Of a DNA stretch of 32,000 bases, positions 1 through 17,832 are shown in pieces. Both the position numbers and the translations under genes were made by a program. This DNA is from Dickeya solani IPO 2222 (GTDB lineage Bacteria; Pseudomonadota; Gammaproteobacteria; Enterobacterales; Enterobacteriaceae). Location of the stretch: the NCBI RefSeq assembly GCF_001644705.1, contig NZ_CP015137.1:3270001-3302000 (forward strand). Reading direction: 5' to 3'. A model generated the notes under the pieces. It had not been told where the DNA came from. It did no database searches and saw nothing but the letters and a program-made list of their open reading frames with translations. The first letter of the stretch is position 1; each line of letters opens with the position of its first letter.

Positions 1-52
1 AAAGTACTATCCAGATAGCCGATGCTTTTTAACCAATTACTATTTTTCATTT

Positions 53-721
53 TTATTGCTCACGCCTTGCCAGATAAAATTGAGTCAGATAGTTAATAGC
101 CAGTTGTGCATCATTTTTTTTAGGATGCAACGTATCATCACCAAATAGTGTTCTTAATTCACCGTCTTTGACCTGTGGTGAAAAAGAGCGGATTATTTCT
201 ACTACCTGGTCAATATAACGCTCATACCAACTGATAGACCGAACCTTCGCCAATATGAGTCGGGCGGTCAGCGAAGAGAATCGCTTTTGCATGACGAGAT
301 GACGCGTAATATGGTCTATATGCACCCATGAGAGCGTTATCTCTTCATAACTCCCGGAATGATAGCGTAATGCTACATCTGCATCAGAGTGGTAATAACC
401 CATAATGTAGCCATGAAAAATCTGGCCCACACCTACCATCCCTGCATTATAACAATCGGCAGCGCGTAGTGCTCCCATACTGGAACAGCCCAGTAATAGT
501 CCCCCGGCCTGAATGAATTCCAGGCACTCCACCACGGTTACAGACATTTTAGTGCCAAACAAGCCATCAGCGATTAATACCGGGCGACCGCTACCCGTTA
601 ATGTTGCCAGTTCCCCACCCTGAATCGGTGGGCGATACTCAATAATAGCGTCACGTTGTTTAATCGCTGACACTGACGGACCACCAAATACGATCGGTTT
701 ACGTTTAGGCGAAAAAAGCAT
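53..721 (-). CDS. TfuA-like protein (accessory partner of YcaO in peptide backbone thioamidation)
   Basis: 222-aa ORF with the family-typical stretches 'PIVFGGPS', 'VLIADGLFG' and 'GCSSMGALRAADCYNAGMVGVGQIF'. The ATG at 721 lies 3 nt after the ycaO stop (725-727), so the two genes are probably translationally coupled. Confidence 0.85.
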   Translation of the reverse strand: MLFSPKRKPIVFGGPSVSAIKQRDAIIEYRPPIQGGELATLTGSGRPVLIADGLFGTKMSVTVVECLEFIQAGGLLLGCSSMGALRAADCYNAGMVGVGQIFHGYIMGYYHSDADVALRYHSGSYEEITLSWVHIDHITRHLVMQKRFSSLTARLILAKVRSISWYERYIDQVVEIIRSFSPQVKDGELRTLFGDDTLHPKKNDAQLAINYLTQFYLARREQ

Positions 722-724
722 AAT

Positions 725-1906
725 TTACCCCACCCGGCCCGGATTAACATGCCAGTCATACAGACCAGGAATAACTGCTTTAACCGTATGAAAAGGTAGA
801 TCGCTCAGCGATAAGTCCACAATATAAACATCCTCGATCTCTTGTTTTTCGAGAATCGTCGCAAGAAATTGCGTTGCTGCTGCCAGGGTTACGGGAGGTT
901 GTTCTGAGATAGATGGTTCTGAGGGAGATGGTTCTGATGACGGCATCGCCACGTTGGCATAATGCTTGTGGAATAACGCCTTCAACTTGCTAAATTTAGA
1001 CGTATCAAAGAAGGATTGTGAGCGGTACTTTTTCTCCTGCCGGTTTAAATCTTCCCGGGAGGCTTGCAGACTCACTACCAGCCCCTGAATCGCTTCCATC
1101 ATTGCGGCATCCAAAGCGTCAGATTCTGTAAAACCTGATGCAGAACCTGCAATCATAAACTTCGGCCCCATACTGACGGGATCATACAAAGCAACATAGT
1201 AAGTGGGTAAGGGGCCGTGTATACGCAACGCGAAACTTTCGTACCCTTTATCGTTAAGATGTTCCCACAATGTCATGGTCGACGCGCGGGAAATGGTCGA
1301 GAGATCAACAAAATCAGCGCAGATTTTGGACAGACAGTTCTTGTAGAACAGGGATGTCGTATTACGTTCAATCGACTCCATGATCGCAAAACAGGTCGCT
1401 TCTTCCAGACTGCCCCCGCAAGCCAGTCCGGAAGTATGCGCTTGTATATTAGCGTTATGTCTGTCGGCACCATGATATGGAAATTGCACTTCAATCGCAG
1501 GGATTCGCCGTTCGCGACCCGTATGCCACTCATATCCGTTTATCCATTGCTGAATATTACATTCCGGAGTGAAACCTAATCGTTGCAGTGTCTTTTTATC
1601 GTCCCTGGTTGCCTGATGATGAAAAATAGCCGGCTCGCACCAGCAAGCGCAATGTCGTTCATACGCTTCCATCAGCGCGCTGCAGGTGGCAGCGGTTAAA
1701 CTACGGCCTTTACCCTGTGTGGATGATATCTGGCCTTTTTTTATCTCCGTTCTCACTGCATTGACGATGGATATTCCAGGAAGATTAATAAACTCACCTA
1801 CTGAGGTGAGCCTTGAAATACCTAAACGCTTACGCAGCGGTAGCGCAAGAGCCAATACTTCTTTCTCGGTATAACGCCTTAAGCCGGGATCAGCTGCTGT
1901 TTTCAA
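725..1906 (-). CDS. YcaO-family ATP-dependent peptide amide-activating enzyme
   Basis: 393 aa. Carries the hallmark YcaO motifs 'GKGRSLTAATCSALMEAYERH' and 'TSGLACGGSLEEATCFAIMESIERN'. The TTG start at 1906 follows a GGGAGGA Shine-Dalgarno (SD) sequence by 8 nt and overlaps the upstream stop (TTGA). Confidence 0.9.
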   Translation of the reverse strand: MKTAADPGLRRYTEKEVLALALPLRKRLGISRLTSVGEFINLPGISIVNAVRTEIKKGQISSTQGKGRSLTAATCSALMEAYERHCACWCEPAIFHHQATRDDKKTLQRLGFTPECNIQQWINGYEWHTGRERRIPAIEVQFPYHGADRHNANIQAHTSGLACGGSLEEATCFAIMESIERNTTSLFYKNCLSKICADFVDLSTISRASTMTLWEHLNDKGYESFALRIHGPLPTYYVALYDPVSMGPKFMIAGSASGFTESDALDAAMMEAIQGLVVSLQASREDLNRQEKKYRSQSFFDTSKFSKLKALFHKHYANVAMPSSEPSPSEPSISEQPPVTLAAATQFLATILEKQEIEDVYIVDLSLSDLPFHTVKAVIPGLYDWHVNPGRVG

Positions 1907-4900
1907 CGATCGTTCCTCCCGGCCGAAAAATCATGGGCAAGGGTCAGGCATTTCAACTGAATGTATTTATTTATCTGTTTTCTGACCGTTAACGGAAGTG
2001 TCGCATAGGTTTTCTGCGCATCAGCCAGACAATGGAGCCTGATCAGTTCTGTTAGTGAATGATAAAGTTGTGCGCTGATTAACTGCGACGTTCCCTGATA
2101 GTCATGAGTAAGCCAGTACCTTATTTCATTTTTTTCCAGTGCGCTGTGCAGCTTGCAGCCGGGGCTAAGGCGTAACAATCCTGGCAGGTTTTTTTCATCT
2201 AACGCCCACTCACGAAGTTCAACGATGTAGTCACCAAATACCACTGCATCGATATGCGTTGAAAGTAGCATTTCTATTGCCTGCTGTGGTTCTTCGACGA
2301 TTGGTTGTCCGCGTACATTGAATGAGGTATTCAGTAAAACAGGAAACCCAGAGAGTTTGCCAAAGGCATTCAACAACGCGTGGATCTCGGCATTGTCATG
2401 CGCCGAGACCGTTTGTACCCGCGCAGTACCATCAACATGGGTGATTGCCGCGAGTTTGTCCCGGCATTCTTTTTTAACCGGCAGAACTTCGAGCATGTAT
2501 TTATGTTCACCATCCCCGTCAAAGTAATGGCTAAGATGTTCGGCGGCGACCATGGGGGCAAAAGGGCGGAAGTCTTCGCGGAATTTCACCCACTTGTTGA
2601 TGAATTTCCAGGTATCCATTGAACATGGGCTTGCCAGTAATGAGCGAGCGCCTAATGCGCGTGGACCAAATTCAGAACCTTTATTGCAGGAAAAATACCC
2701 GATGACCTGTCCGGCATTTAATCGCCCCGCCAGCGCGGCAGTGTCAATGGGGGTGATCGTTATTCTGTCAGCAAAGCGGTTGGTGGCAAAAGCGATGTCG
2801 CGGTAATGATAAACTTTGCCCAGATAATCATGACTAAAGGCATCATTCAGGGTTTTTCCATGCCTTTTGTAATAGGCGGCACTGGCCGCTCCAATCGAAA
2901 TTCCAGCGTCATGTTGTGCGGGGAAGAGATAGAAGTCTTTTAATTTAAGGTGGTTACGAACCTTAAAATTGACGACGGAATTTAACGCCACTCCGCCGGT
3001 CATGACCAGAGGGGTATTATTCGTAATCTGGTAACGTTCGAGGCGGGAAAATATTCCTTTTTCTAATACTGCCTGCACCGAAGCTGCCAGGTTAGCGTAA
3101 TCCATGGGATTGGATTTCTTTTCAGTGAACCGTTGCTTCCACGAATAGCCATACGATATGCCTGACGGTGTTTCAACAGCGATTTCATCAGCATACTCAG
3201 GTGTGCCGTACGGCGCTAATCCCATCAATTTACCGGAGGCTTGCCAGGAATCAAATACGAACTGGCTCACGGAAGCATAGGCTTCTCCAAGGGAAACACT
3301 GCCATTTCTTATATTAAAAGACGGGCTGTATTCCCTGTTTACTAGCCGATAACCCTGCTGATCAAAAGAATAATGCGACACGACATGCAACTGCGGCTTA
3401 ATTCCGTTTAGACCTGCATTCAGGTAGGCGGCAAATTCTTCGCCACTGCATAAAAGATCTTCCCGGCCCACGACGGTTCCGCCCGAACCGTCAACGACCA
3501 GAACATTACCCTGGTTAAATTTTGAACCAGACCAGGCAGCAAAAGCATGGCATAGATGGTGACTGGCAAAGACGGCTTTGGCAGAGAACGGATCAAACAG
3601 GGTAAAATCTGCGGCATGGATCGGCTGATTGAGGCCGATATACTCCGGTGTGGCCGCCTGAATATTATATGCAAAGCAGTTCACATCATGGTAAGTAAGA
3701 CCCGCGGCTGAAAGGCAGTAATCCACCGCCAGGGTACTATCGAGAATATTCCGGCCATCATGTTTAATCCGCGTAAGGCGTTCCAGTTGAATGCCATAAC
3801 GAATTTTACCGTTGACCATAAGGCATGCTGACGCATCATGGCTGGCGGAAATGCCAACAATGACATCGTCATCAGGTTTAATTAGCGGGAGTGAAGACGT
3901 TATATTGGTGTCTATGGTCACCTGAGATGCGAGGGTGATCCGATCGAACAGCCCTTCGGCTTGCAACCATATAGTCTGTTCACCGGTATGGCTTAGCCCC
4001 TCGGTAGAGATAAGTAGCGTGCCATTTTCCCCGATGATTTTCTGACCATCGACTATTGCCGTCAATCGGGTTGTGCGTGCGATGCTTCCCTGAAAACCAG
4101 CGACCAGACCGATTTTTAACCCGGTGTCTGTTGAGGGCAACGTGAGTGTGGTTTCTATCTGCGTCGATCTCTCGACATTGAGATCCCAGCACTGTGGCAT
4201 GTGTGGTGGAAGCGGCTTATTTTCAAATAAGTACAATCCCTGATAAGCCTCACTCAGGCAGATCATACCGGCGTGTAGCGCCAGACGATCGTGGGGATTG
4301 CCCGATTTGATAAGAAAGTCGCGTAGGTTGGCTGCCAGCCCCGCAAGGTAAACAACGGCTGCAGACGTACCTTTTATGGAGTCAGGCTCACCAGCATTAT
4401 TACGTGTTGGGTAGTCAAACTCTCTGACGATAAATTCTATATTGCCATTACCTGCCGGCGTTTTTCCTGGAATGGTATTATTTGTTAATAATAGAGCAAT
4501 ACCGATTGCTTCCGCCGAAGAGCCAGGGAAACGCTGGCGTCCGAAATCGTGACCTACTGATGCCAGTATGTAAGGTATGTCAGTTGCGTCGGAAAAGTTA
4601 GATAAAGCCGCATGCAGCGAATGAGAGAATTCATTTTCAGCAGAAGAATACGCATGAGCTTCGATATGACAGTTTCCAAATTGTTGGACAACACGTTTTC
4701 TCACGCTGTCATAGCCTTGGGAAAAGGCATCAAGGTAGCTGGCGGAAACAACGCGGGAAAAGTCCTCTCCTGAGTAAGAAAAAAGATCGCTGGTCAGTAA
4801 ACCGGAAATTTTAACGGTATGTGGATTTACTCTCTCTCCATTTGATATTTCCGCCAGCCGTACGATTTCGTTTTTTCTTGCACTATCAAATAGAAGGATA

Positions 4901-4920
4901 TTGGTGTTGTTCGTGTCCAT
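1903..4920 (-). CDS. Large fusion protein: C-terminal NodU/CmcH/TobZ-type carbamoyltransferase with an N-terminal ~350-aa extension (possible subtilase-like domain)
   Basis: I place the start at ATG 4920, with TAAGG 6 nt upstream; the track start at 4935 is a TTG. From about residue 355 the sequence matches the carbamoyltransferase family ('VIVGISASHDASACLMVNGKI', 'HHLCHAFAAW', 'MTGGVALNSVVN', 'LLNTSFNVRGQPIV'). In the N-terminal part, 'KGTSAAVVYLAGLAANL' resembles the subtilase serine motif GTSxAxPxVAG. That N-terminal assignment is by eye only. Confidence 0.8.
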   Translation of the reverse strand: MDTNNTNILLFDSARKNEIVRLAEISNGERVNPHTVKISGLLTSDLFSYSGEDFSRVVSASYLDAFSQGYDSVRKRVVQQFGNCHIEAHAYSSAENEFSHSLHAALSNFSDATDIPYILASVGHDFGRQRFPGSSAEAIGIALLLTNNTIPGKTPAGNGNIEFIVREFDYPTRNNAGEPDSIKGTSAAVVYLAGLAANLRDFLIKSGNPHDRLALHAGMICLSEAYQGLYLFENKPLPPHMPQCWDLNVERSTQIETTLTLPSTDTGLKIGLVAGFQGSIARTTRLTAIVDGQKIIGENGTLLISTEGLSHTGEQTIWLQAEGLFDRITLASQVTIDTNITSSLPLIKPDDDVIVGISASHDASACLMVNGKIRYGIQLERLTRIKHDGRNILDSTLAVDYCLSAAGLTYHDVNCFAYNIQAATPEYIGLNQPIHAADFTLFDPFSAKAVFASHHLCHAFAAWSGSKFNQGNVLVVDGSGGTVVGREDLLCSGEEFAAYLNAGLNGIKPQLHVVSHYSFDQQGYRLVNREYSPSFNIRNGSVSLGEAYASVSQFVFDSWQASGKLMGLAPYGTPEYADEIAVETPSGISYGYSWKQRFTEKKSNPMDYANLAASVQAVLEKGIFSRLERYQITNNTPLVMTGGVALNSVVNFKVRNHLKLKDFYLFPAQHDAGISIGAASAAYYKRHGKTLNDAFSHDYLGKVYHYRDIAFATNRFADRITITPIDTAALAGRLNAGQVIGYFSCNKGSEFGPRALGARSLLASPCSMDTWKFINKWVKFREDFRPFAPMVAAEHLSHYFDGDGEHKYMLEVLPVKKECRDKLAAITHVDGTARVQTVSAHDNAEIHALLNAFGKLSGFPVLLNTSFNVRGQPIVEEPQQAIEMLLSTHIDAVVFGDYIVELREWALDEKNLPGLLRLSPGCKLHSALEKNEIRYWLTHDYQGTSQLISAQLYHSLTELIRLHCLADAQKTYATLPLTVRKQINKYIQLKCLTLAHDFSAGRNDR

Positions 4921-4964
4921 ACATCGCCTTATCAACCAGTATTATTATATTTTTTATTTTAAAG

Positions 4965-5798
4965 TCAGAATGAAGGAGTGAAATTCATCCTTTGACAGGA
5001 GTTTTCTATATTTGCCAAATCTGTCACGATCACTTCAGATGAAATACCTACCCCTAATTCATAGGTAACGGCTTTAAGGTTAGTGCATTGCGTAACGGCT
5101 TGCTCTAGCAAAGGAAAAACCTCAGCCACAATTTTTTCTGAGTGAGTGTCACGATATCGCCAATGATGTTTAGGATGAACACTACCGCCTGCAATATGAA
5201 TTTCATTGACCGCTGAGAGTGGCAGACTATTCAAGACATCTTCCGGTTTCAGGCCATAATAGATCGCATAAGAAAATACATGGCTGATATCCAACACCAC
5301 ACCGCATTGCGTCGCGTCAACCAGACGATGAAAAAACTCACCCAGCGTCATGTCGCCCGCGGCAATACTGAACGAGGGAATTTCGGCACAAAATGGAATG
5401 CTGGAAACTTGCTGAATACGTTTCACACCCTCGATTGTCATTGCAAGGACTGACTCGCAGAGCACCGGTGCTGCGAAATAGGGCAGATTATAAGGGCCAA
5501 CATTCCAGATGCCGATATCTTCCAGACACCATGCCGCTTGCAACGCATTACTGATGTTGCTTTGATTTTCCAGTACATCAGGTCGTAATCCATCAATTCC
5601 CGCAGGTTCCATACCTGAAAAATGGTGTATGAGCGGATAGTCAATAAAGTTCTGACGAAATGCCTTGGCTACAGCGAGATCTGGAATAGCGACGACTGAC
5701 AGATGGCTAATTCCATGTTGGGATAATTTCAATAGGTCACTTAATTTATGGCCATAACTGTGAGTATAATCAATCCCTAATCCTACATATGAGCTCAT
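4965..5798 (-). CDS. DUF692 / MNIO family enzyme (MbnB/TglH/BufB-like multinuclear non-heme iron oxidase)
   Basis: 277 aa. Has TIM-barrel-type metal-ligand stretches typical of DUF692: 'GLGIDYTH', 'LEDIG', 'VLDISHVFSY', 'NEIHIAGG', 'YRDTHSE', 'VTYELG'. The ATG at 5798 has an AAGGAG SD 6 nt upstream and overlaps the stop of the preceding gene (ATGA). Confidence 0.8.
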   Translation of the reverse strand: MSSYVGLGIDYTHSYGHKLSDLLKLSQHGISHLSVVAIPDLAVAKAFRQNFIDYPLIHHFSGMEPAGIDGLRPDVLENQSNISNALQAAWCLEDIGIWNVGPYNLPYFAAPVLCESVLAMTIEGVKRIQQVSSIPFCAEIPSFSIAAGDMTLGEFFHRLVDATQCGVVLDISHVFSYAIYYGLKPEDVLNSLPLSAVNEIHIAGGSVHPKHHWRYRDTHSEKIVAEVFPLLEQAVTQCTNLKAVTYELGVGISSEVIVTDLANIENSCQRMNFTPSF

Positions 5799-6379
5799 GC
5801 TGTCTCCTTAAGTGAAATCGCTACTTTCCCATTTTCATTGTGTAAGCGTAAACATGCCGATTTATTCTCGAATGCGACATCGGAGAGATGGCCCGCTTTG
5901 TTCAATAATGATAATGAGAAATACCTGTCGAGAGTAATCTCTTCGGTTGTCGACTTTTCGTCAACATGGCTTATTTTCGATTTCCACGGTGAGTTTTCAG
6001 AGCTTGTTGAAATGCCAGAGTAAATGCCGTCAATCAGAAATATGGTTTTCTCTTCTTCAGTCAGGTTGGATTTTTCGACAACAAATAAGCAAAAACTTTC
6101 AATCAGTGTCCTGCTGTTCCAGTTCCAGAAACTGTCTGACTCGCAATATGCTATTACCAGGGTAAGAAACTGCTCTTTGCTAAAAAAACGTGGGGAAAAG
6201 TGCATGTCTGAATAAAGAACGGTACGCAAATTTCGCTGTCTGGCTGAGCGTTCAACGATCAGTCTTTCGCTGTCCATGGTTCGGGCAAGGTACTGATACT
6301 CTGTCTCTGCATCCGTTATCCGATAGTTGTCGCTATATAGCATCGACACATAGGCTTTCTGTAACTTTTTCGCGTCCAA
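5795..6379 (-). CDS. Hypothetical 194-aa protein; by position a candidate MNIO partner or substrate-recognition subunit (MbnC/TglI/BufC role)
   Basis: The ORF is 4-nt coupled to the DUF692 gene. A TTG start at 6379 lies 6 nt after a GGAGG that is formed by the Gly-Gly codons of the upstream ThiS-like gene; an alternative ATG sits at codon 13. I recognise no family from the sequence, so the functional call rests on context only. Confidence 0.5.
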   Translation of the reverse strand: MDAKKLQKAYVSMLYSDNYRITDAETEYQYLARTMDSERLIVERSARQRNLRTVLYSDMHFSPRFFSKEQFLTLVIAYCESDSFWNWNSRTLIESFCLFVVEKSNLTEEEKTIFLIDGIYSGISTSSENSPWKSKISHVDEKSTTEEITLDRYFSLSLLNKAGHLSDVAFENKSACLRLHNENGKVAISLKETA

Positions 6380-6381
6380 GA

Positions 6382-6642
6382 TTAACCTCCCGAAATAGCT
6401 ACTTCAAATGTCAAATGATCACCATCGGTTAGGATTGGATTGCTATCAACTGACATCGTATTGTTAATAAAAAGGGTAATGAAAGGCTTTAACTTGCAGC
6501 TTTCATTTTTTTCGACGGCTATTAATTTAAATGCCTCAGGATGCATACTCCTGATTTCAAGTAAGATAGCGTCAAGGCTTTTAGCGTCTGTTATTATCTT
6601 ACCAGCGCTTCTTATTGATTCTGGCAGCGATATCTCAATCAT
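6382..6642 (-). CDS. ThiS/MoaD-like small sulfur-carrier protein (C-terminal Gly-Gly)
   Basis: 86 aa, ending '...DGDHLTFEVAISGG' followed directly by the stop. This matches the MoaD/ThiS beta-grasp C-terminus. The gene lies 15 nt downstream of the E1-like gene. Confidence 0.75.
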   Translation of the reverse strand: MIEISLPESIRSAGKIITDAKSLDAILLEIRSMHPEAFKLIAVEKNESCKLKPFITLFINNTMSVDSNPILTDGDHLTFEVAISGG

Positions 6643-6657
6643 CGTTATACAGTTCCA

Positions 6658-7743
6658 TTAATTATTATGGCATTGACATCCAGGACGTTTTTTAGTGGTT
6701 AGTAGCTGATGTTGATTGTTGAGCATGTCTATTTTTAATAGTTTCCCGTTTAAACAGTCGCCAATCCCAAGAATAATCTTTAGTACTTCGTTTGCCTGAT
6801 ATATTCCGAGCATTCCGGGGATCACGCCAACAACGCCATTTTCTGTGCAGGATGGAGCCAATTCTGCTGGAGGGGCTTCCGGGTAGACACAACGATAACA
6901 AGGTGCCTGATTATTCGAACGTGTCATGACTTGCCCGGAAAAACGGAATACAGCCGCGGAGACTACGGGTTTTCCCGCCGCGACAGCTGAATCATTAATA
7001 ATGTACCGGGCTTTAAAATTGTCGGTACAATCTACGATAACGTCGTATCCGTCTATTAATGCATCAATATTTTCTGGCGTTACCCGCTCATCGATAGTAT
7101 TAATCGTGATTTCAGAATTTAGTGCCCGTAATGTATGCAATGCAGAATCAACTTTTTTCTTTTTCAGCATTTTTTCGTTATGAATGACCTGCCGTTGCAA
7201 ATTGCTCAGATCAACAATGTCATGATCGACGATTGTAATTTCACCAACGCCGGCTGCTGCGAGATACAGTAGACAGGATGAGCCGAGTCCTCCGGCACCG
7301 ACAACCAGCACTTTCGCTTGCATAATTTTTAACTGACCATCGGAACCGATGTCTTGTAGAGACAGGTGTCTTGCATAACGTTTTTTATCATTTTCGCTAA
7401 GGCTCAGAGGGTATTCAATTTGATTCCCCTGAGCTTTCCATGCTTCAAATCCCCCCTGAAGGGAGTAGATATTCGAATAGTTAAGTAGCACTAAGTTTAA
7501 TGCAGCGTATCTGGAGCGTAAGCCACTTGCACAAAAGAGTACGATAGGTTTATCTAATTCTATTTTTCTTTTCTTTAGCTCTATTTCTAGAAAGCCACGC
7601 CCGATAGTCAGTGCTTTGGGAATAGTACCGTCAAGATATTCATGGCTCTCTCTTACATCAATCAAAAGAAAATCGTCGCTGTCTTTCAATTCATCTATCG
7701 AGATTGAGCGGATACTGTCAATTCCATCGACTATGTTACTCAT
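6658..7743 (-). CDS. Rhodanese-ThiF/MoeB fusion (E1-like adenylyltransferase/sulfurtransferase)
   Basis: 361 aa. The N-terminal rhodanese domain has the active-site loop 'CASGLRS'. The ThiF/MoeB Rossmann region follows ('VLVVGAGGLGSSCLLYLAAAGVGEITIVDHDIVDLSNLQRQ'), then the paired Cys motifs 'CYRC' and 'CQC'. Confidence 0.9.
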   Translation of the reverse strand: MSNIVDGIDSIRSISIDELKDSDDFLLIDVRESHEYLDGTIPKALTIGRGFLEIELKKRKIELDKPIVLFCASGLRSRYAALNLVLLNYSNIYSLQGGFEAWKAQGNQIEYPLSLSENDKKRYARHLSLQDIGSDGQLKIMQAKVLVVGAGGLGSSCLLYLAAAGVGEITIVDHDIVDLSNLQRQVIHNEKMLKKKKVDSALHTLRALNSEITINTIDERVTPENIDALIDGYDVIVDCTDNFKARYIINDSAVAAGKPVVSAAVFRFSGQVMTRSNNQAPCYRCVYPEAPPAELAPSCTENGVVGVIPGMLGIYQANEVLKIILGIGDCLNGKLLKIDMLNNQHQLLTTKKRPGCQCHNN

Positions 7744-7819
7744 AAATAAATACCTTTCGATTACTGAAAAGTAAAGTATGGTTTTGATATCTTATTTAAG
7801 GTGAGGCGATTAAGGAAGG

Positions 7820-7838
7820 GTGGCCGCATAGCGGCCAC
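7820..7838 (-). terminator. GC-rich stem-loop between the small leading ORF and the enzyme genes (possible attenuator or RNA-stabilising hairpin)
   Basis: Perfect 8-bp stem GTGGCCGC-ATA-GCGGCCAC. On the minus strand it starts 7 nt after the small-ORF stop and is followed by CCUUCCUUAA. The clean T-tract (TTTTTCTT) lies on the plus-strand side. Confidence 0.4.
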
Positions 7839-7844
7839 TTTTTC

Positions 7845-16068: not shown

Positions 16069-17832
16069 ATGCACGATAATTTGAATGAGACGGCTGGCAA
16101 GATAGCCGATATCGTAAAATCCTATCTGGTTCAGGCGCAGGATGATCGTTTTGAGCCGGAAGGGCGTATATTTCTGGAAAAACAAATCAGCGCCTTCCTG
16201 CACGCTTCTGAACCCGTCAGGTTTGTCCTGCCCGGTTTCCCTTGCAAATCCCCCAATATTGTCGACAAATCGTTCGGCATTTTGCCGGATTATGGCGATG
16301 TGATTTCCATCAATCGTCTGGAATCGTTGGCGAAAGCGATTCAGGCGTTATATGAACCCGGCAGTCAGGTGACCATTCTGAGTGATGGTATAACCTTTAA
16401 TGATATTGTCGAGGTTCCGGATGCAATCCGCAAAGAATATAACCAGCAGCTACGCGCGCTGATTCAGTCACCTTATATTGAATGGAAAGAACTCCGGGAT
16501 TTTCTCCCTGAAACGCGTTCGGATGATGAAACCCGTAAAGCGCTGATCAAATCGGCCGGATTACCGTACAAGGGCATCGCTGATTTTATCAAGCGCGTCG
16601 GGAATCACGACGAACTGGCGGCGACGCACGATAAAATCTGCAGTTATTTGTATAACGATGTGCGGCTGAACCGGCAACCTCAGCAGTCTAATGAAGACTA
16701 CCTGAACAGTGTGGCGGAAAAAGCCTATCAGATGATGTACCGCGGTCAGGCCTTGAGCGCGCTGGTGGAGCGAGCCTTCCCTGACGCTATTCGCCTGTCG
16801 GTTCATCAGTATGACAACGACGGCCCGAAATTTACCTTTGGTTTTGCCGACGGCCTTGCCACCGTGCGTCAACCGTGGCACAGCGTGCCGGTTCTGTCGG
16901 CGTCGGGGAATGTATCCCTACAGGGCCATGCCAGCGTTGATAAAGACCGCCATGTGCTGGTGACCTATCAGGGGCGCCCCTGGGTGTATGTGGAAGCTGG
17001 GGACGCCAGCGCCGGGAAGTTCGATTACGAATTACTCAAACAACCGCTGTTCGGCCTGAAGATTGACGATCCGCAGGGGCTGGGGGTTGAGGCGCTGCCG
17101 CCGGCGTTTCTGGCGTTCCTGTCCGCTCAGTTCGGTTTCGTGTGTATCAAGGGCGTGCAGTTTGAGCGCAGCGAGCAGCTGGAAACGTTTTGCCAGCCGT
17201 TCGGCGAGATTTTCCAGTGGCAGTTCGGCGCGGTGCATGTGGTGAAACCGGAGGAAAAACCGAGCGGATTCGTACATTCGCTGGAGAAAACGCCGATACA
17301 CTGGGACCTGAGCATGATCCGGCTGGATCACGAACAGGTTGGCGGTAATCCCTGGTTTACCGCAGAGCGCTTCATGCTGTATTGCAAGACCCCGCCGAAG
17401 AAAGGTGAGGGCAGCACCACGGTGGTGGATGGCCGCATCGTAATGGATATGGTCGGCCCGGACGTGGTGAAAAAATGGGAAGACGTTCACATCACCTATA
17501 ACACCCCGATGACCTATTTCGGCGGCAAACCACGCACTTATCCGCTGGTGTACGCGCACCCGAAAACCGGCAAAAAGGCGTTTCGCTATCAGGAAGGCAG
17601 CGACTCCGACTTGCAGAAGTTTACCGTTGAGGTGGAAGGCGTTTCTGGGCAGGAGAGCCAGGCCTTCATCGGGGAGCTTGACCGGCTGGTGTACGATGAG
17701 CGCTGCATGATTGCCCATGACTGGGATCAGGGCGACCTGCTGATCATCGATAACTGGCAGACGCTGCACGGCCGGCTGCCGATGACCGAAGCATCACGCG
17801 GTCGTGAGCTGTGGCGGGTGCAGGTGTTTTAA
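16069..17832 (+). CDS. Fused isocyanide synthase (IsnA/PvcA-like) and Fe(II)/2-oxoglutarate dioxygenase (IsnB/PvcB, TauD/TfdA-like)
   Basis: 587 aa. The N-terminal half has 'LPGFPCKSPNIVDKSFGILPDYGD', 'ILSDGITFND', 'RLSVHQY' and 'QPWHS'. The C-terminal half has an HxD motif ('IHWDLS') and the distal 'DNWQTLHGR', as in TauD/TfdA enzymes. GGAG SD 7 nt upstream of the ATG. Confidence 0.85.
   Translation: MHDNLNETAGKIADIVKSYLVQAQDDRFEPEGRIFLEKQISAFLHASEPVRFVLPGFPCKSPNIVDKSFGILPDYGDVISINRLESLAKAIQALYEPGSQVTILSDGITFNDIVEVPDAIRKEYNQQLRALIQSPYIEWKELRDFLPETRSDDETRKALIKSAGLPYKGIADFIKRVGNHDELAATHDKICSYLYNDVRLNRQPQQSNEDYLNSVAEKAYQMMYRGQALSALVERAFPDAIRLSVHQYDNDGPKFTFGFADGLATVRQPWHSVPVLSASGNVSLQGHASVDKDRHVLVTYQGRPWVYVEAGDASAGKFDYELLKQPLFGLKIDDPQGLGVEALPPAFLAFLSAQFGFVCIKGVQFERSEQLETFCQPFGEIFQWQFGAVHVVKPEEKPSGFVHSLEKTPIHWDLSMIRLDHEQVGGNPWFTAERFMLYCKTPPKKGEGSTTVVDGRIVMDMVGPDVVKKWEDVHITYNTPMTYFGGKPRTYPLVYAHPKTGKKAFRYQEGSDSDLQKFTVEVEGVSGQESQAFIGELDRLVYDERCMIAHDWDQGDLLIIDNWQTLHGRLPMTEASRGRELWRVQVF

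Follow-up and report, generated by a model that had tools for sequence, protein, structure and literature searches.

A subtilisin-like protease fused to a carbamoyltransferase in Dickeya solani: a predicted orthologue of StdF in a peptide-modifying operon

Introduction

In a stretch of 32,000 nucleotides of Dickeya solani IPO 2222 (assembly GCF_001644705.1, contig NZ_CP015137.1, positions 3,270,001 to 3,302,000; the whole stretch is called the window below, and positions are counted from its first letter), an operon for a peptide that is made by the ribosome and modified after translation (RiPP) encodes a protein of 1005 residues in which a small subtilisin-like protease and a carbamoyltransferase are genuinely fused. 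Judged by sequence and gene order, this protein is the Dickeya orthologue of StdF, the corresponding enzyme of the std cluster of Streptomyces thermodiastaticus JCM 4840 (Hebron, Shriver, Ziarek and Rosenzweig, bioRxiv, 5 May 2026, PMC13174530), and it belongs to a cluster type whose proteobacterial members are already catalogued. The fusion is not, in other words, a new kind of system, since its architecture is known from StdF. We consider it very probable that the Dickeya protein is a bifunctional RiPP maturation enzyme which works by the StdF mechanism.

The analysis confirms, in a genus of plant pathogens, a recently found type of enzyme, a follower peptidase joined to a carbamoyltransferase which acts on a peptide lysine and so produces homocitrulline. 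It also provides residue assignments that go beyond those of the preprint (D12/H34/S186, His124, H361, H454, H458, D477, D671, K779 and S866), it points to a dedicated ThiS/ThiF-rhodanese sulfur supply for YcaO/TfuA in the proteobacterial version of the pathway, and it shows that the public annotation of the strain splits the fusion gene through homopolymer errors.

Results and discussion

The fusion is an orthologue of StdF

The genes of the std cluster code for a precursor, StdA, with a conserved SNKEWQE motif, for an MNIO and its partner protein (StdE and StdD), for YcaO and TfuA proteins (StdG and StdH) and for a permease of the major facilitator superfamily (MFS), StdI (PMC13174530). In vitro, StdGH thioamidates the Asn of the motif, StdF supplied with ATP and carbamoyl phosphate converts the Lys into homocitrulline with loss of EWQE, and StdDE, which acts after StdF, hydroxylates the homocitrulline twice (PMC13174530). 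The products of StdF are shifted by +43.11 Da and by −529.10 Da, the latter corresponding to carbamoylation plus the loss of EWQE; the modification was localised to Lys14, and nuclear magnetic resonance (NMR) data were obtained on the final product (PMC13174530). Among 97 precursors, there is no exception to the Ser, Lys and Trp of the motif (100% conservation), and Table S2 of the same preprint gives the precursors of numerous strains of Dickeya, Photorhabdus, Burkholderia and Pseudomonas (PMC13174530).

We compared the operon of the window with the Std proteins by BLASTP, using the sequences from the supplement of the preprint (that of StdF from a copy produced by optical character recognition). 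The carbamoyltransferase part of the fusion is 47% identical to StdF over 601 amino acids (2e-163) and its N-terminal domain 31% over 180 amino acids (1e-7); the MNIO is 42% identical to StdE over 272 amino acids (2e-76), the partner 39% to StdD over 87 (3e-11), the YcaO protein 28.5% to StdG over 389 (6e-38) and the TfuA protein 34% to StdH over 210 (8e-32). The two operons are collinear, with the genes for the partner and the MNIO upstream of the fusion and those for YcaO and TfuA downstream (in the order of Table S1), and an MFS gene is found further downstream in both. The precursor of the window has the core SNK and the follower EWQE; its C-terminal motif is the same as that of StdA and of the Dickeya precursors of Table S2, which end in ...DVTCMVSNKEWQE. 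The BLASTP matches of five enzymes in collinear gene order, the SNKEWQE precursor and the Dickeya precursors of Table S2 are the reasons why we assign the fusion to StdF, with which it shares the order of domains, the S8/S53-like peptidase coming first and the NodU-like carbamoyltransferase second.

There are also differences. StdF is longer (approximately 1061 residues, against 1005 for the Dickeya fusion), and the precursor has 61 residues in the std cluster but only 40 here, with a much shorter leader. In the proteobacterial operon, genes for rhodanese-ThiF and a ThiS-like protein separate the precursor gene from the partner gene, and the MFS gene is followed by one for a GNAT protein; all three are missing from the std gene list.

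The initial annotation of the window, made from the sequence alone, knew of no such architecture in RiPP pathways; it has now been described for StdF, and Dickeya clusters whose precursor is nearly identical figure in Table S2 (PMC13174530). The double function that it envisaged, of a peptidase combined with a tailoring enzyme, has been demonstrated in vitro for the orthologue StdF, but what is removed is the follower EWQE and not the leader. In a full-text search of the literature, the std preprint was the one paper that bears directly on the fusion; a paper on the MNIO landscape (PMC12452194) is silent on clusters of the std type.

The open reading frame and the genuineness of the fusion

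The fusion is encoded by an uninterrupted open reading frame (ORF) at 1903–4920, as initially annotated; it lies on the minus strand, with an ATG at 4920. An in-frame TTG upstream of it, at 4935, would lengthen the protein by five residues. It is an unlikely start as judged from the sequences of the Dickeya orthologues, because these likewise have 1005 residues and begin with MDTNN.

The public assembly GCA_013339845.1 of the strain contains the same locus on contig JABAOP010000001.1, with no substitution and five one-base differences over 14.9 kb. All of them are in homopolymers (window 114, 3997, 7451, 7996 and 8144), and GCA_013339845.1 is shorter by one base at each. At 3997, the G4 of the window is G3 in GCA_013339845.1, so that the frame there stops after residue 308. 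The gene is accordingly called in that assembly as two proteins of 308 and 638 amino acids, the latter starting at M368. In the same annotation, the rhodanese-ThiF protein is called in two pieces of 112 and 221 amino acids, TfuA has 211 instead of 222 amino acids, and the ThiS-like gene is left uncalled. At all three coding indels, it is the version of the window that gives full-length alignments with the orthologues (361 amino acids for ThiF-rhodanese, 222 for TfuA and 1005 for the fusion).

A search with the full-length protein retrieves more than 25 fused orthologues from at least nine genera, each a single polypeptide of 1004–1044 amino acids. Their identity to the fusion is 87–93% in Dickeya, 57–66% in Photorhabdus, Xenorhabdus and an Erwiniaceae bacterium, and 36–44% in Burkholderia, Paraburkholderia, Caballeronia, Pseudomonas and Pseudorhodoferax. 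A scan for related loci with the single protein gave three species-representative loci. Dickeya undicola, Xenorhabdus ehlersii and also Photorhabdus kayaii have the same eight genes as the window, with an unbroken fusion ORF, and there are related operons in Burkholderia and Pseudomonas. Since the orthologues are unbroken and the window version restores full-length proteins at the coding indels, the fusion is genuine and no assembly artefact, and the split in the annotation of GCA_013339845.1 is a homopolymer error.

A search in which residues 1–350 served as the query retrieved solely an exact prefix of 308 amino acids, which at first hinted at a domain standing by itself (an orphan) or at a gene in two parts. 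We reject this suggestion: the result is explained by the word pre-filter of the search and by the frameshifted public assembly, and the family is recovered both with the full-length query and by an exhaustive HMMER search.

The N-terminal domain is a divergent subtilase

The first 350 residues or so are extra to the carbamoyltransferase, as had been noticed initially: Pfam gives no match within residues 1–350, even when E values up to 10 are admitted, and the alignments of the fusion with PDB sequences begin at about residue 350. That this extension is subtilase-like, which was also part of the initial annotation, is borne out in several ways. A profile built from an alignment of 17 N-terminal domains of the family (which also defines the invariant columns given below) matches, in the PDB, the cyanobactin N-terminal protease 4h6w (6.7e-9) and the AK.1 protease 1dbi (9e-5), and more weakly savinase and others. 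Seven of these 17 domains match PF00082 individually, the best with 1.7e-14, and remote members of the family, found by exhaustive HMMER search or linked by phmmer, score 37–54 bits for a PF00082 cut-off of 21.8.

A structure prediction and fold search of residues 1–350, which had been proposed as a check of the initial annotation, also led to subtilases. The AlphaFold2 model of this region has a predicted local distance difference test (pLDDT) of 87 and a predicted template modelling score (pTM) of 0.90; with this model, Foldseek finds 171 PDB matches at E ≤ 1e-3, and the best 50 of the 171 are all subtilases. The matches include Tk-SP (3afg, 2e-9), Kex2, furin and subtilisin BPN', with template modelling scores relative to the target (TMt) of up to 0.61. 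Tk-SP, Kex2 and furin align over 400–450 columns, beyond the catalytic core, so that the β-sandwich of residues 243–345 is covered too. The membership of the window's domain in S8/PF00082 thus rests on transitive homology and fold, and the model depicts residues 1–350 as a divergent subtilase of compact build and, after it, a β-sandwich that resembles the jelly-roll or P-domain of Tk-SP, kexin and furin.

Residues H34, G123, H124, R130, P132, G184, S186, A188 and V189 are invariant in the 17 N-terminal domains, and D12 is present in every aligned family member that has a complete N-terminus. In the alignment with 1dbi, D12 corresponds to the Asp of IAVIDTG, H34 (in NPHTVKISG) to the first His of HGTHVAG, S186 to the Ser of GTSMA, and H124 to the Asn of AAGNNG. 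In the model, D12 closes the strand 8–12, H34 opens the helix 33–43, and S186 opens a long helix, 185–205, as in subtilisin. The predicted catalytic triad is therefore D12/H34/S186, in the order Asp-His-Ser that goes with the subtilase motifs DxG, HxxH and GTSxA. Two of the triad regions that had been pointed out initially hold, namely ILLFDSA (residues 8–14) for the Asp and KGTSAAVVYLAGLAANL (residues 183–199) for the Ser. The third, VGHDFG (residues 122–127), does not: its H124, a former candidate for the catalytic His, aligns with the Asn of the oxyanion hole, while it is H34 that aligns with the catalytic His.

The motif GHDxxxxRFP, to which H124 belongs (residues 122–132, window approximately 4525–4557), is found throughout the family, and GHD stands for GN also in StdF and in members which pass the Pfam S8 cut-off. 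Because every member of the family has a His in place of the oxyanion-hole Asn, it is not certain that catalysis is that of a normal subtilase. The idea of a degenerate protease fold reused for peptide binding, which had been mentioned initially, is not favoured, since D12, H34 and S186 are kept throughout the family.

Like Tk-SP, kexin and furin, the fusion has the order Asp-His-Ser, a GTSxA motif, and an α/β core followed by a β-sandwich. Subtilases of other RiPP pathways are also comparable (PatA, PatG and PagA; 4h6w, 4aks): PatA and PatG are cytoplasmic and lack a pro-domain, like the fusion, and PatG removes a C-terminal follower, as we infer for the fusion. Unlike these subtilases, the fusion has a very compact core, of approximately 235 residues, which is placed upstream of a tailoring enzyme, and an invariant His for the oxyanion Asn, within GHDxxxxRFP.

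The carbamoyltransferase part

The initial annotation assigned residues from about 355 to 1005 to the carbamoyltransferases, and a complete enzyme of the TobZ/GdmN type is indeed found from about residue 350 to 1005. Pfam Carbam_trans_N matches best over 448–679 (94.5 bits, cut-off 24) and Carbam_trans_C over 732–901 (203.9 bits, 1.7e-60, cut-off 27); a sequence search of the PDB returns GdmN (3e-57) and TobZ (1e-53). The score for the NodU equivalog NF041651 is 123.8 bits for a cut-off of 1000, so the fusion is not NodU itself.

In these alignments, H361 corresponds to the general base (GdmN H27, TobZ H14), and H454, H458, D477, D671, K779, M809 and S866 correspond to TobZ H114, H118, D137, D338, K443, M473 and S530, respectively. 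We take TobZ H114, H118, D137 and D338 to be metal ligands, so that H454, H458, D477 and D671 would make up the metal site of the fusion. The names of the TobZ variants were confirmed from the titles of PDB entries. The eight residues of the fusion are all invariant in an alignment of 22 sequences, and so are the motifs EFGPRALGxRS, KxREDFRPFAP and LNTSFN. The role of the general base is established in GdmN, whose H27N variant is inactive (PMC9633730). All the carbamoyl-phosphate and ATP residues that were checked, whose loss would have spoken against the initial annotation, are present, and from its sequence the carbamoyltransferase domain looks competent.

The full-length AlphaFold2 model (pLDDT 85, pTM 0.86) has no disorder in the linker between residue 345 and the start of the carbamoyltransferase, at about 353. 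With this model, Foldseek finds GdmN (2e-44, TMt 0.73) and TobZ (TMt 0.78); any one PDB chain covers at most about half of it (score relative to the query, TMq, ≤ 0.51). The GdmN alignment runs to residue 993 of the fusion, whose C-terminal domain, 902–1005, aligns with the dimerisation domain of GdmN, D574–L674 (PMC9633730), which it resembles; this auxiliary domain is missing from TobZ.

The fusion has the Kae1-like and YrdC-like core and the conserved catalytic residues of TobZ (3ven), GdmN (7vyj), NovN (9s2t) and VtdB (7xb6, class III). These four enzymes have no protease domain and O-carbamoylate small molecules; the StdF family differs in that its substrate is a lysine within a peptide, which is N-carbamoylated. 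Before StdF, the crocagin enzyme was the only carbamoyltransferase associated with a RiPP (PMC13174530). It resembles the fusion in being a carbamoyltransferase of a RiPP pathway, and we place it beside the fusion by description alone.

Proposed maturation pathway

By analogy with the std system, the pathway would begin with the thioamidation, by YcaO and TfuA, of the Asn in the C-terminal SNKEWQE of the precursor, the sulfur probably coming from the operon's own thiocarboxylated ThiS (ThiS-COSH), made by rhodanese-ThiF. The YrdC-like domain of the fusion would then form carbamoyl-AMP from carbamoyl phosphate and ATP, and the Kae1-like domain (metal site H454/H458/D477/D671, base H361) would carbamoylate the ε-amine of the Lys to give homocitrulline. 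The N-terminal subtilase domain, with D12/H34/S186, would cut after the homocitrulline and release the follower EWQE. Last, the MNIO and its partner would hydroxylate the C-terminal homocitrulline at its β and γ carbons, and the product would be exported by the MFS permease. The chemistry of thioamidation, carbamoylation, cleavage and hydroxylation has been demonstrated in vitro in the StdF system; for Dickeya, the sequence analysis establishes the folds of the domains, the conserved catalytic residues, the orthology and synteny with std, and the motif of the precursor. We infer that the chemistry is the same in the Dickeya orthologue as in StdF, that it is the S8 domain which cleaves, that ThiS provides the sulfur, and that carbamoylation and cleavage follow each other in this order.

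Regarding the sulfur, thiocarboxylated ThiS homologues together with the TfuA hydrolase are the accepted route for thioamide-forming YcaO proteins in non-sulfidic habitats (PMC13063428). Genes for rhodanese-ThiF and a ThiS-like protein are conserved in the clusters of Dickeya, Xenorhabdus, Photorhabdus, Burkholderia and Pseudomonas, but neither the std gene list nor the locus of Pseudorhodoferax includes them; rhodanese-ThiF is kept at the same position of the operon in five related loci (L002–L006). Since the operon of the window encodes both rhodanese-ThiF and a ThiS-like protein ending in GG, and since the ThiS/TfuA route is known, the natural reading is that of what looks like a self-contained sulfur relay for YcaO/TfuA.

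It may also be, although we think it rather unlikely, that proteolysis is conditional on carbamoylation and, separately, that the proteobacterial operons lead to a different end product. A His that never varies at the oxyanion position, together with the rigid packing of protease and carbamoyltransferase in the model (pTM 0.86), could mean that the subtilase accepts only homocitrulline at P1; if true, such a checkpoint would be a feature undescribed for any subtilase. The ThiS/ThiF-rhodanese relay and the GNAT protein could, for their part, lead to a different, possibly small and antimetabolite-like product, with a self-immunity based on acetylation.

Alternative explanations

Several observations weigh against the proposed function of the fusion. 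The in vitro chemistry comes from Streptomyces StdF, which is not a proteobacterial enzyme, and even there the cleavage is given to the S8 domain just "presumably", without active-site mutants (PMC13174530). The window's own N-terminal domain reaches no Pfam S8 score (the gathering threshold of PF00082 is 21.8 bits) and shares only 31% identity with StdF, in an alignment of 180 residues; the canonical oxyanion-hole Asn (N155 of subtilisin) is replaced family-wide by the invariant His124; and the public assembly of the strain carries G3 instead of G4 at window 3997. The N-terminal domain could be a catalytically dead subtilase, acting as a binding or scaffold module, with EWQE removed by another protease. 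This would fit with the His in place of the oxyanion-hole Asn in all members, with a domain too divergent for Pfam, and with the fact that the S8 active site was left unmutated in PMC13174530. We nevertheless hold a dead domain to be improbable: D12, H34 and S186 align with triads of solved structures and are conserved from Dickeya to StdF of Streptomyces and to the triple fusions described below, the product lacking EWQE is made by purified StdF alone, and the operon is without any other protease gene.

It is conceivable that the chemistry is a different one, and that a TobZ- or NodU-like enzyme carbamoylates a hydroxyl group, either of the Ser of SNK or of a small molecule, the protease then being a conventional leader peptidase. 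The solved relatives TobZ, GdmN, NovN and VtdB are all O-carbamoyltransferases, and a leader peptidase is what the initial annotation had presumed. On the contrary, tandem mass spectrometry of the StdF product places the +43 Da on Lys14, NMR identifies homocitrulline, and the fragment that is lost is the C-terminal EWQE; Ser, Lys and Trp are conserved in the 97 precursors, and the precursor of the window has the same motif, so that we find O-carbamoylation very improbable. As for the idea that there are two genes, coding for a subtilase-like protein of 308 amino acids and a separate carbamoyltransferase, the extra G of the window being an error, we give it hardly any credence. The G3 and the calls of 308 and 638 amino acids in GCA_013339845.1 speak for it, and TTG or GTG codons between residues 319 and 336 might start a separate carbamoyltransferase. 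But all five differences are shortenings of homopolymers in GCA_013339845.1, the other two that fall in coding sequence disrupt proteins which every orthologue has at full length, each of the more than 25 orthologues, from at least nine genera, is encoded by one ORF (1004–1044 amino acids), and a protein of 638 residues starting at M368 would be deprived of the essential general base, H361. A single bifunctional enzyme of the StdF type remains the reading that we prefer.

Organisation of the operon

The features of the operon and the domains of the fusion are collected in Table 1. All the genes are on the minus strand, overlapping or tightly spaced: the genes for the MNIO partner and the MNIO overlap by 4 nucleotides, and the TTG start of ycaO, which has a GGAGG 8 nucleotides upstream, overlaps the stop codon of the fusion.

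Table 1. Features of the Dickeya operon and domains of the fusion protein (window coordinates)
Feature	Size or residues	Position	Strand	Basis
Precursor peptide, MDKAQELELAVAELNAENTEAENEILLDVTCMVSNKEWQE	40 aa	7845..7967	-	ORF list, DNA; also a 40-aa gene call in GCA_013339845.1
GC-rich hairpin, stem GUGGCCGC/GCGGCCAC, loop UAU	8-bp stem	7820..7838	-	directly 3' of the precursor stop codon
Rhodanese-ThiF/MoeB-type adenylyltransferase/sulfurtransferase	361 aa	6658..7743	-	Pfam Rhodanese and ThiF
ThiS/MoaD-like sulfur-carrier protein, ending AISGG	86 aa	6382..6642	-	translation, orthologue profile
MNIO partner, StdD-like	194 aa	5795..6379	-	BLASTP to StdD
MNIO/DUF692, StdE-like	277 aa	4965..5798	-	Pfam MbnB_TglH_ChrH, 6.6e-25
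Fusion: compact subtilase (S8-like) core	residues 1-235	4216..4920	-	PDB profile search, PF00082 in relatives, Foldseek, invariant columns
Fusion: all-beta sandwich between protease and carbamoyltransferase	residues 243-345	3886..4194	-	model secondary structure, Foldseek
Fusion: Kae1-like carbamoyl-transfer domain	residues ~350-690	2851..3873	-	GdmN/TobZ alignments
Fusion: YrdC-like domain (carbamoyl-AMP from carbamoyl phosphate and ATP)	residues ~700-901	2218..2823	-	Pfam Carbam_trans_C, 1.7e-60; TobZ alignment
Fusion: C-terminal auxiliary domain	residues 902-1005	1906..2217	-	GdmN alignment, model strands/helices 915-1003
YcaO, StdG-like	393 aa	725..1906	-	Pfam YcaO, 8.9e-39
TfuA, StdH-like	222 aa	53..721	-	Pfam TfuA, 1.6e-23
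MFS permease, StdI-like, start only (gene cut by the window edge)		1..50	-	gene calls in GCA_013339845.1

The precursor gene is preceded by a Shine-Dalgarno sequence, AAGGAAAG, and has orthologues at two related loci (L002 and L004). The RNA of 7735–7850, which includes the hairpin of Table 1, folds with −28.9 kcal/mol (z = −4.4), and none of 200 shuffled sequences folds as well; the hairpin is possibly a partial terminator that attenuates read-through, or a stabiliser of the precursor transcript. A σ70-like arrangement TTGACA-17-TAATAT (8064–8036, minus strand) is found approximately 70 nucleotides upstream of the precursor; there are three such sites, against 4.3 in shuffled sequences, and no promoter is claimed.

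The rhodanese-ThiF protein scores 511 bits for NCBIfam PRK08762, whose cut-off is 449. The profile of the ThiS-like protein, made from six orthologues, matches ThiS/MoaD 4n6e (1.3e-3), CysO 3dwg and MoaD 3rpf in the PDB; three of the six match PF02597, and all six end in GG. The MNIO partner has no Pfam match. Beyond the edge of the window, the locus of GCA_013339845.1 (in which 14918 is position 1 of the window) continues with the MFS gene (445 amino acids, 14869–16206) and then a GNAT gene (Acetyltransf_3, 16229–16789).

Variants in the family

Triple fusions S8-carbamoyltransferase-YcaO, of 1434–1461 amino acids, also belong to the family. A contig of Piscinibacter gummiphilus, of the size of a plasmid, encodes a carbamoyltransferase-YcaO fusion without S8 domain (7001–10339); a neighbouring ORF of 57 amino acids (4161–4334) ends in GLSNKARQKPW and not in EWQE, and a C39-ABC transporter gene adjoins. 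This is one case, but it agrees with the idea that S8 domain and EWQE follower occur as a pair.

The precursors end in SNKEWQE in Burkholderia (locus L005, 3251–3376), SDKEWQE in Pseudomonas (L006, 3355–3483) and SCKEWQE in Pseudorhodoferax (L007, 5254–5442). Since the core varies between SNK, SDK and SCK, the thioamidated position is not always Asn. A gene for a DUF6445 protein is added in the Burkholderia and Pseudomonas clusters, and a GNAT gene in that of Burkholderia. A stand-alone Streptomyces carbamoyltransferase, 46% identical, was considered as a related context and discarded, its neighbourhood being an unrelated small-molecule cluster.

Genomic surroundings

The locus is chromosomal, and a megablast search of plasmids gave no match for the ORF. 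The G+C content of the RiPP cluster (window 1–8100) is 44.8%, against 57% in the flanks (8700–32000), which suggests a horizontal acquisition, although Dickeya undicola also has the cluster, in a syntenic position; the synteny with this species extends over the whole window, at approximately 86% nucleotide identity. Another patch of low G+C content (37%) is present at 13001–14000. Genes of the isonitrile-synthase type lie at 13956–17832 on the plus strand and code for a PvcA/DIT1-like protein of 383 amino acids, a HAD hydrolase of 228 amino acids and a PvcA-TauD/PvcB fusion of 587 amino acids; this set is flanked by MFS transporter genes.

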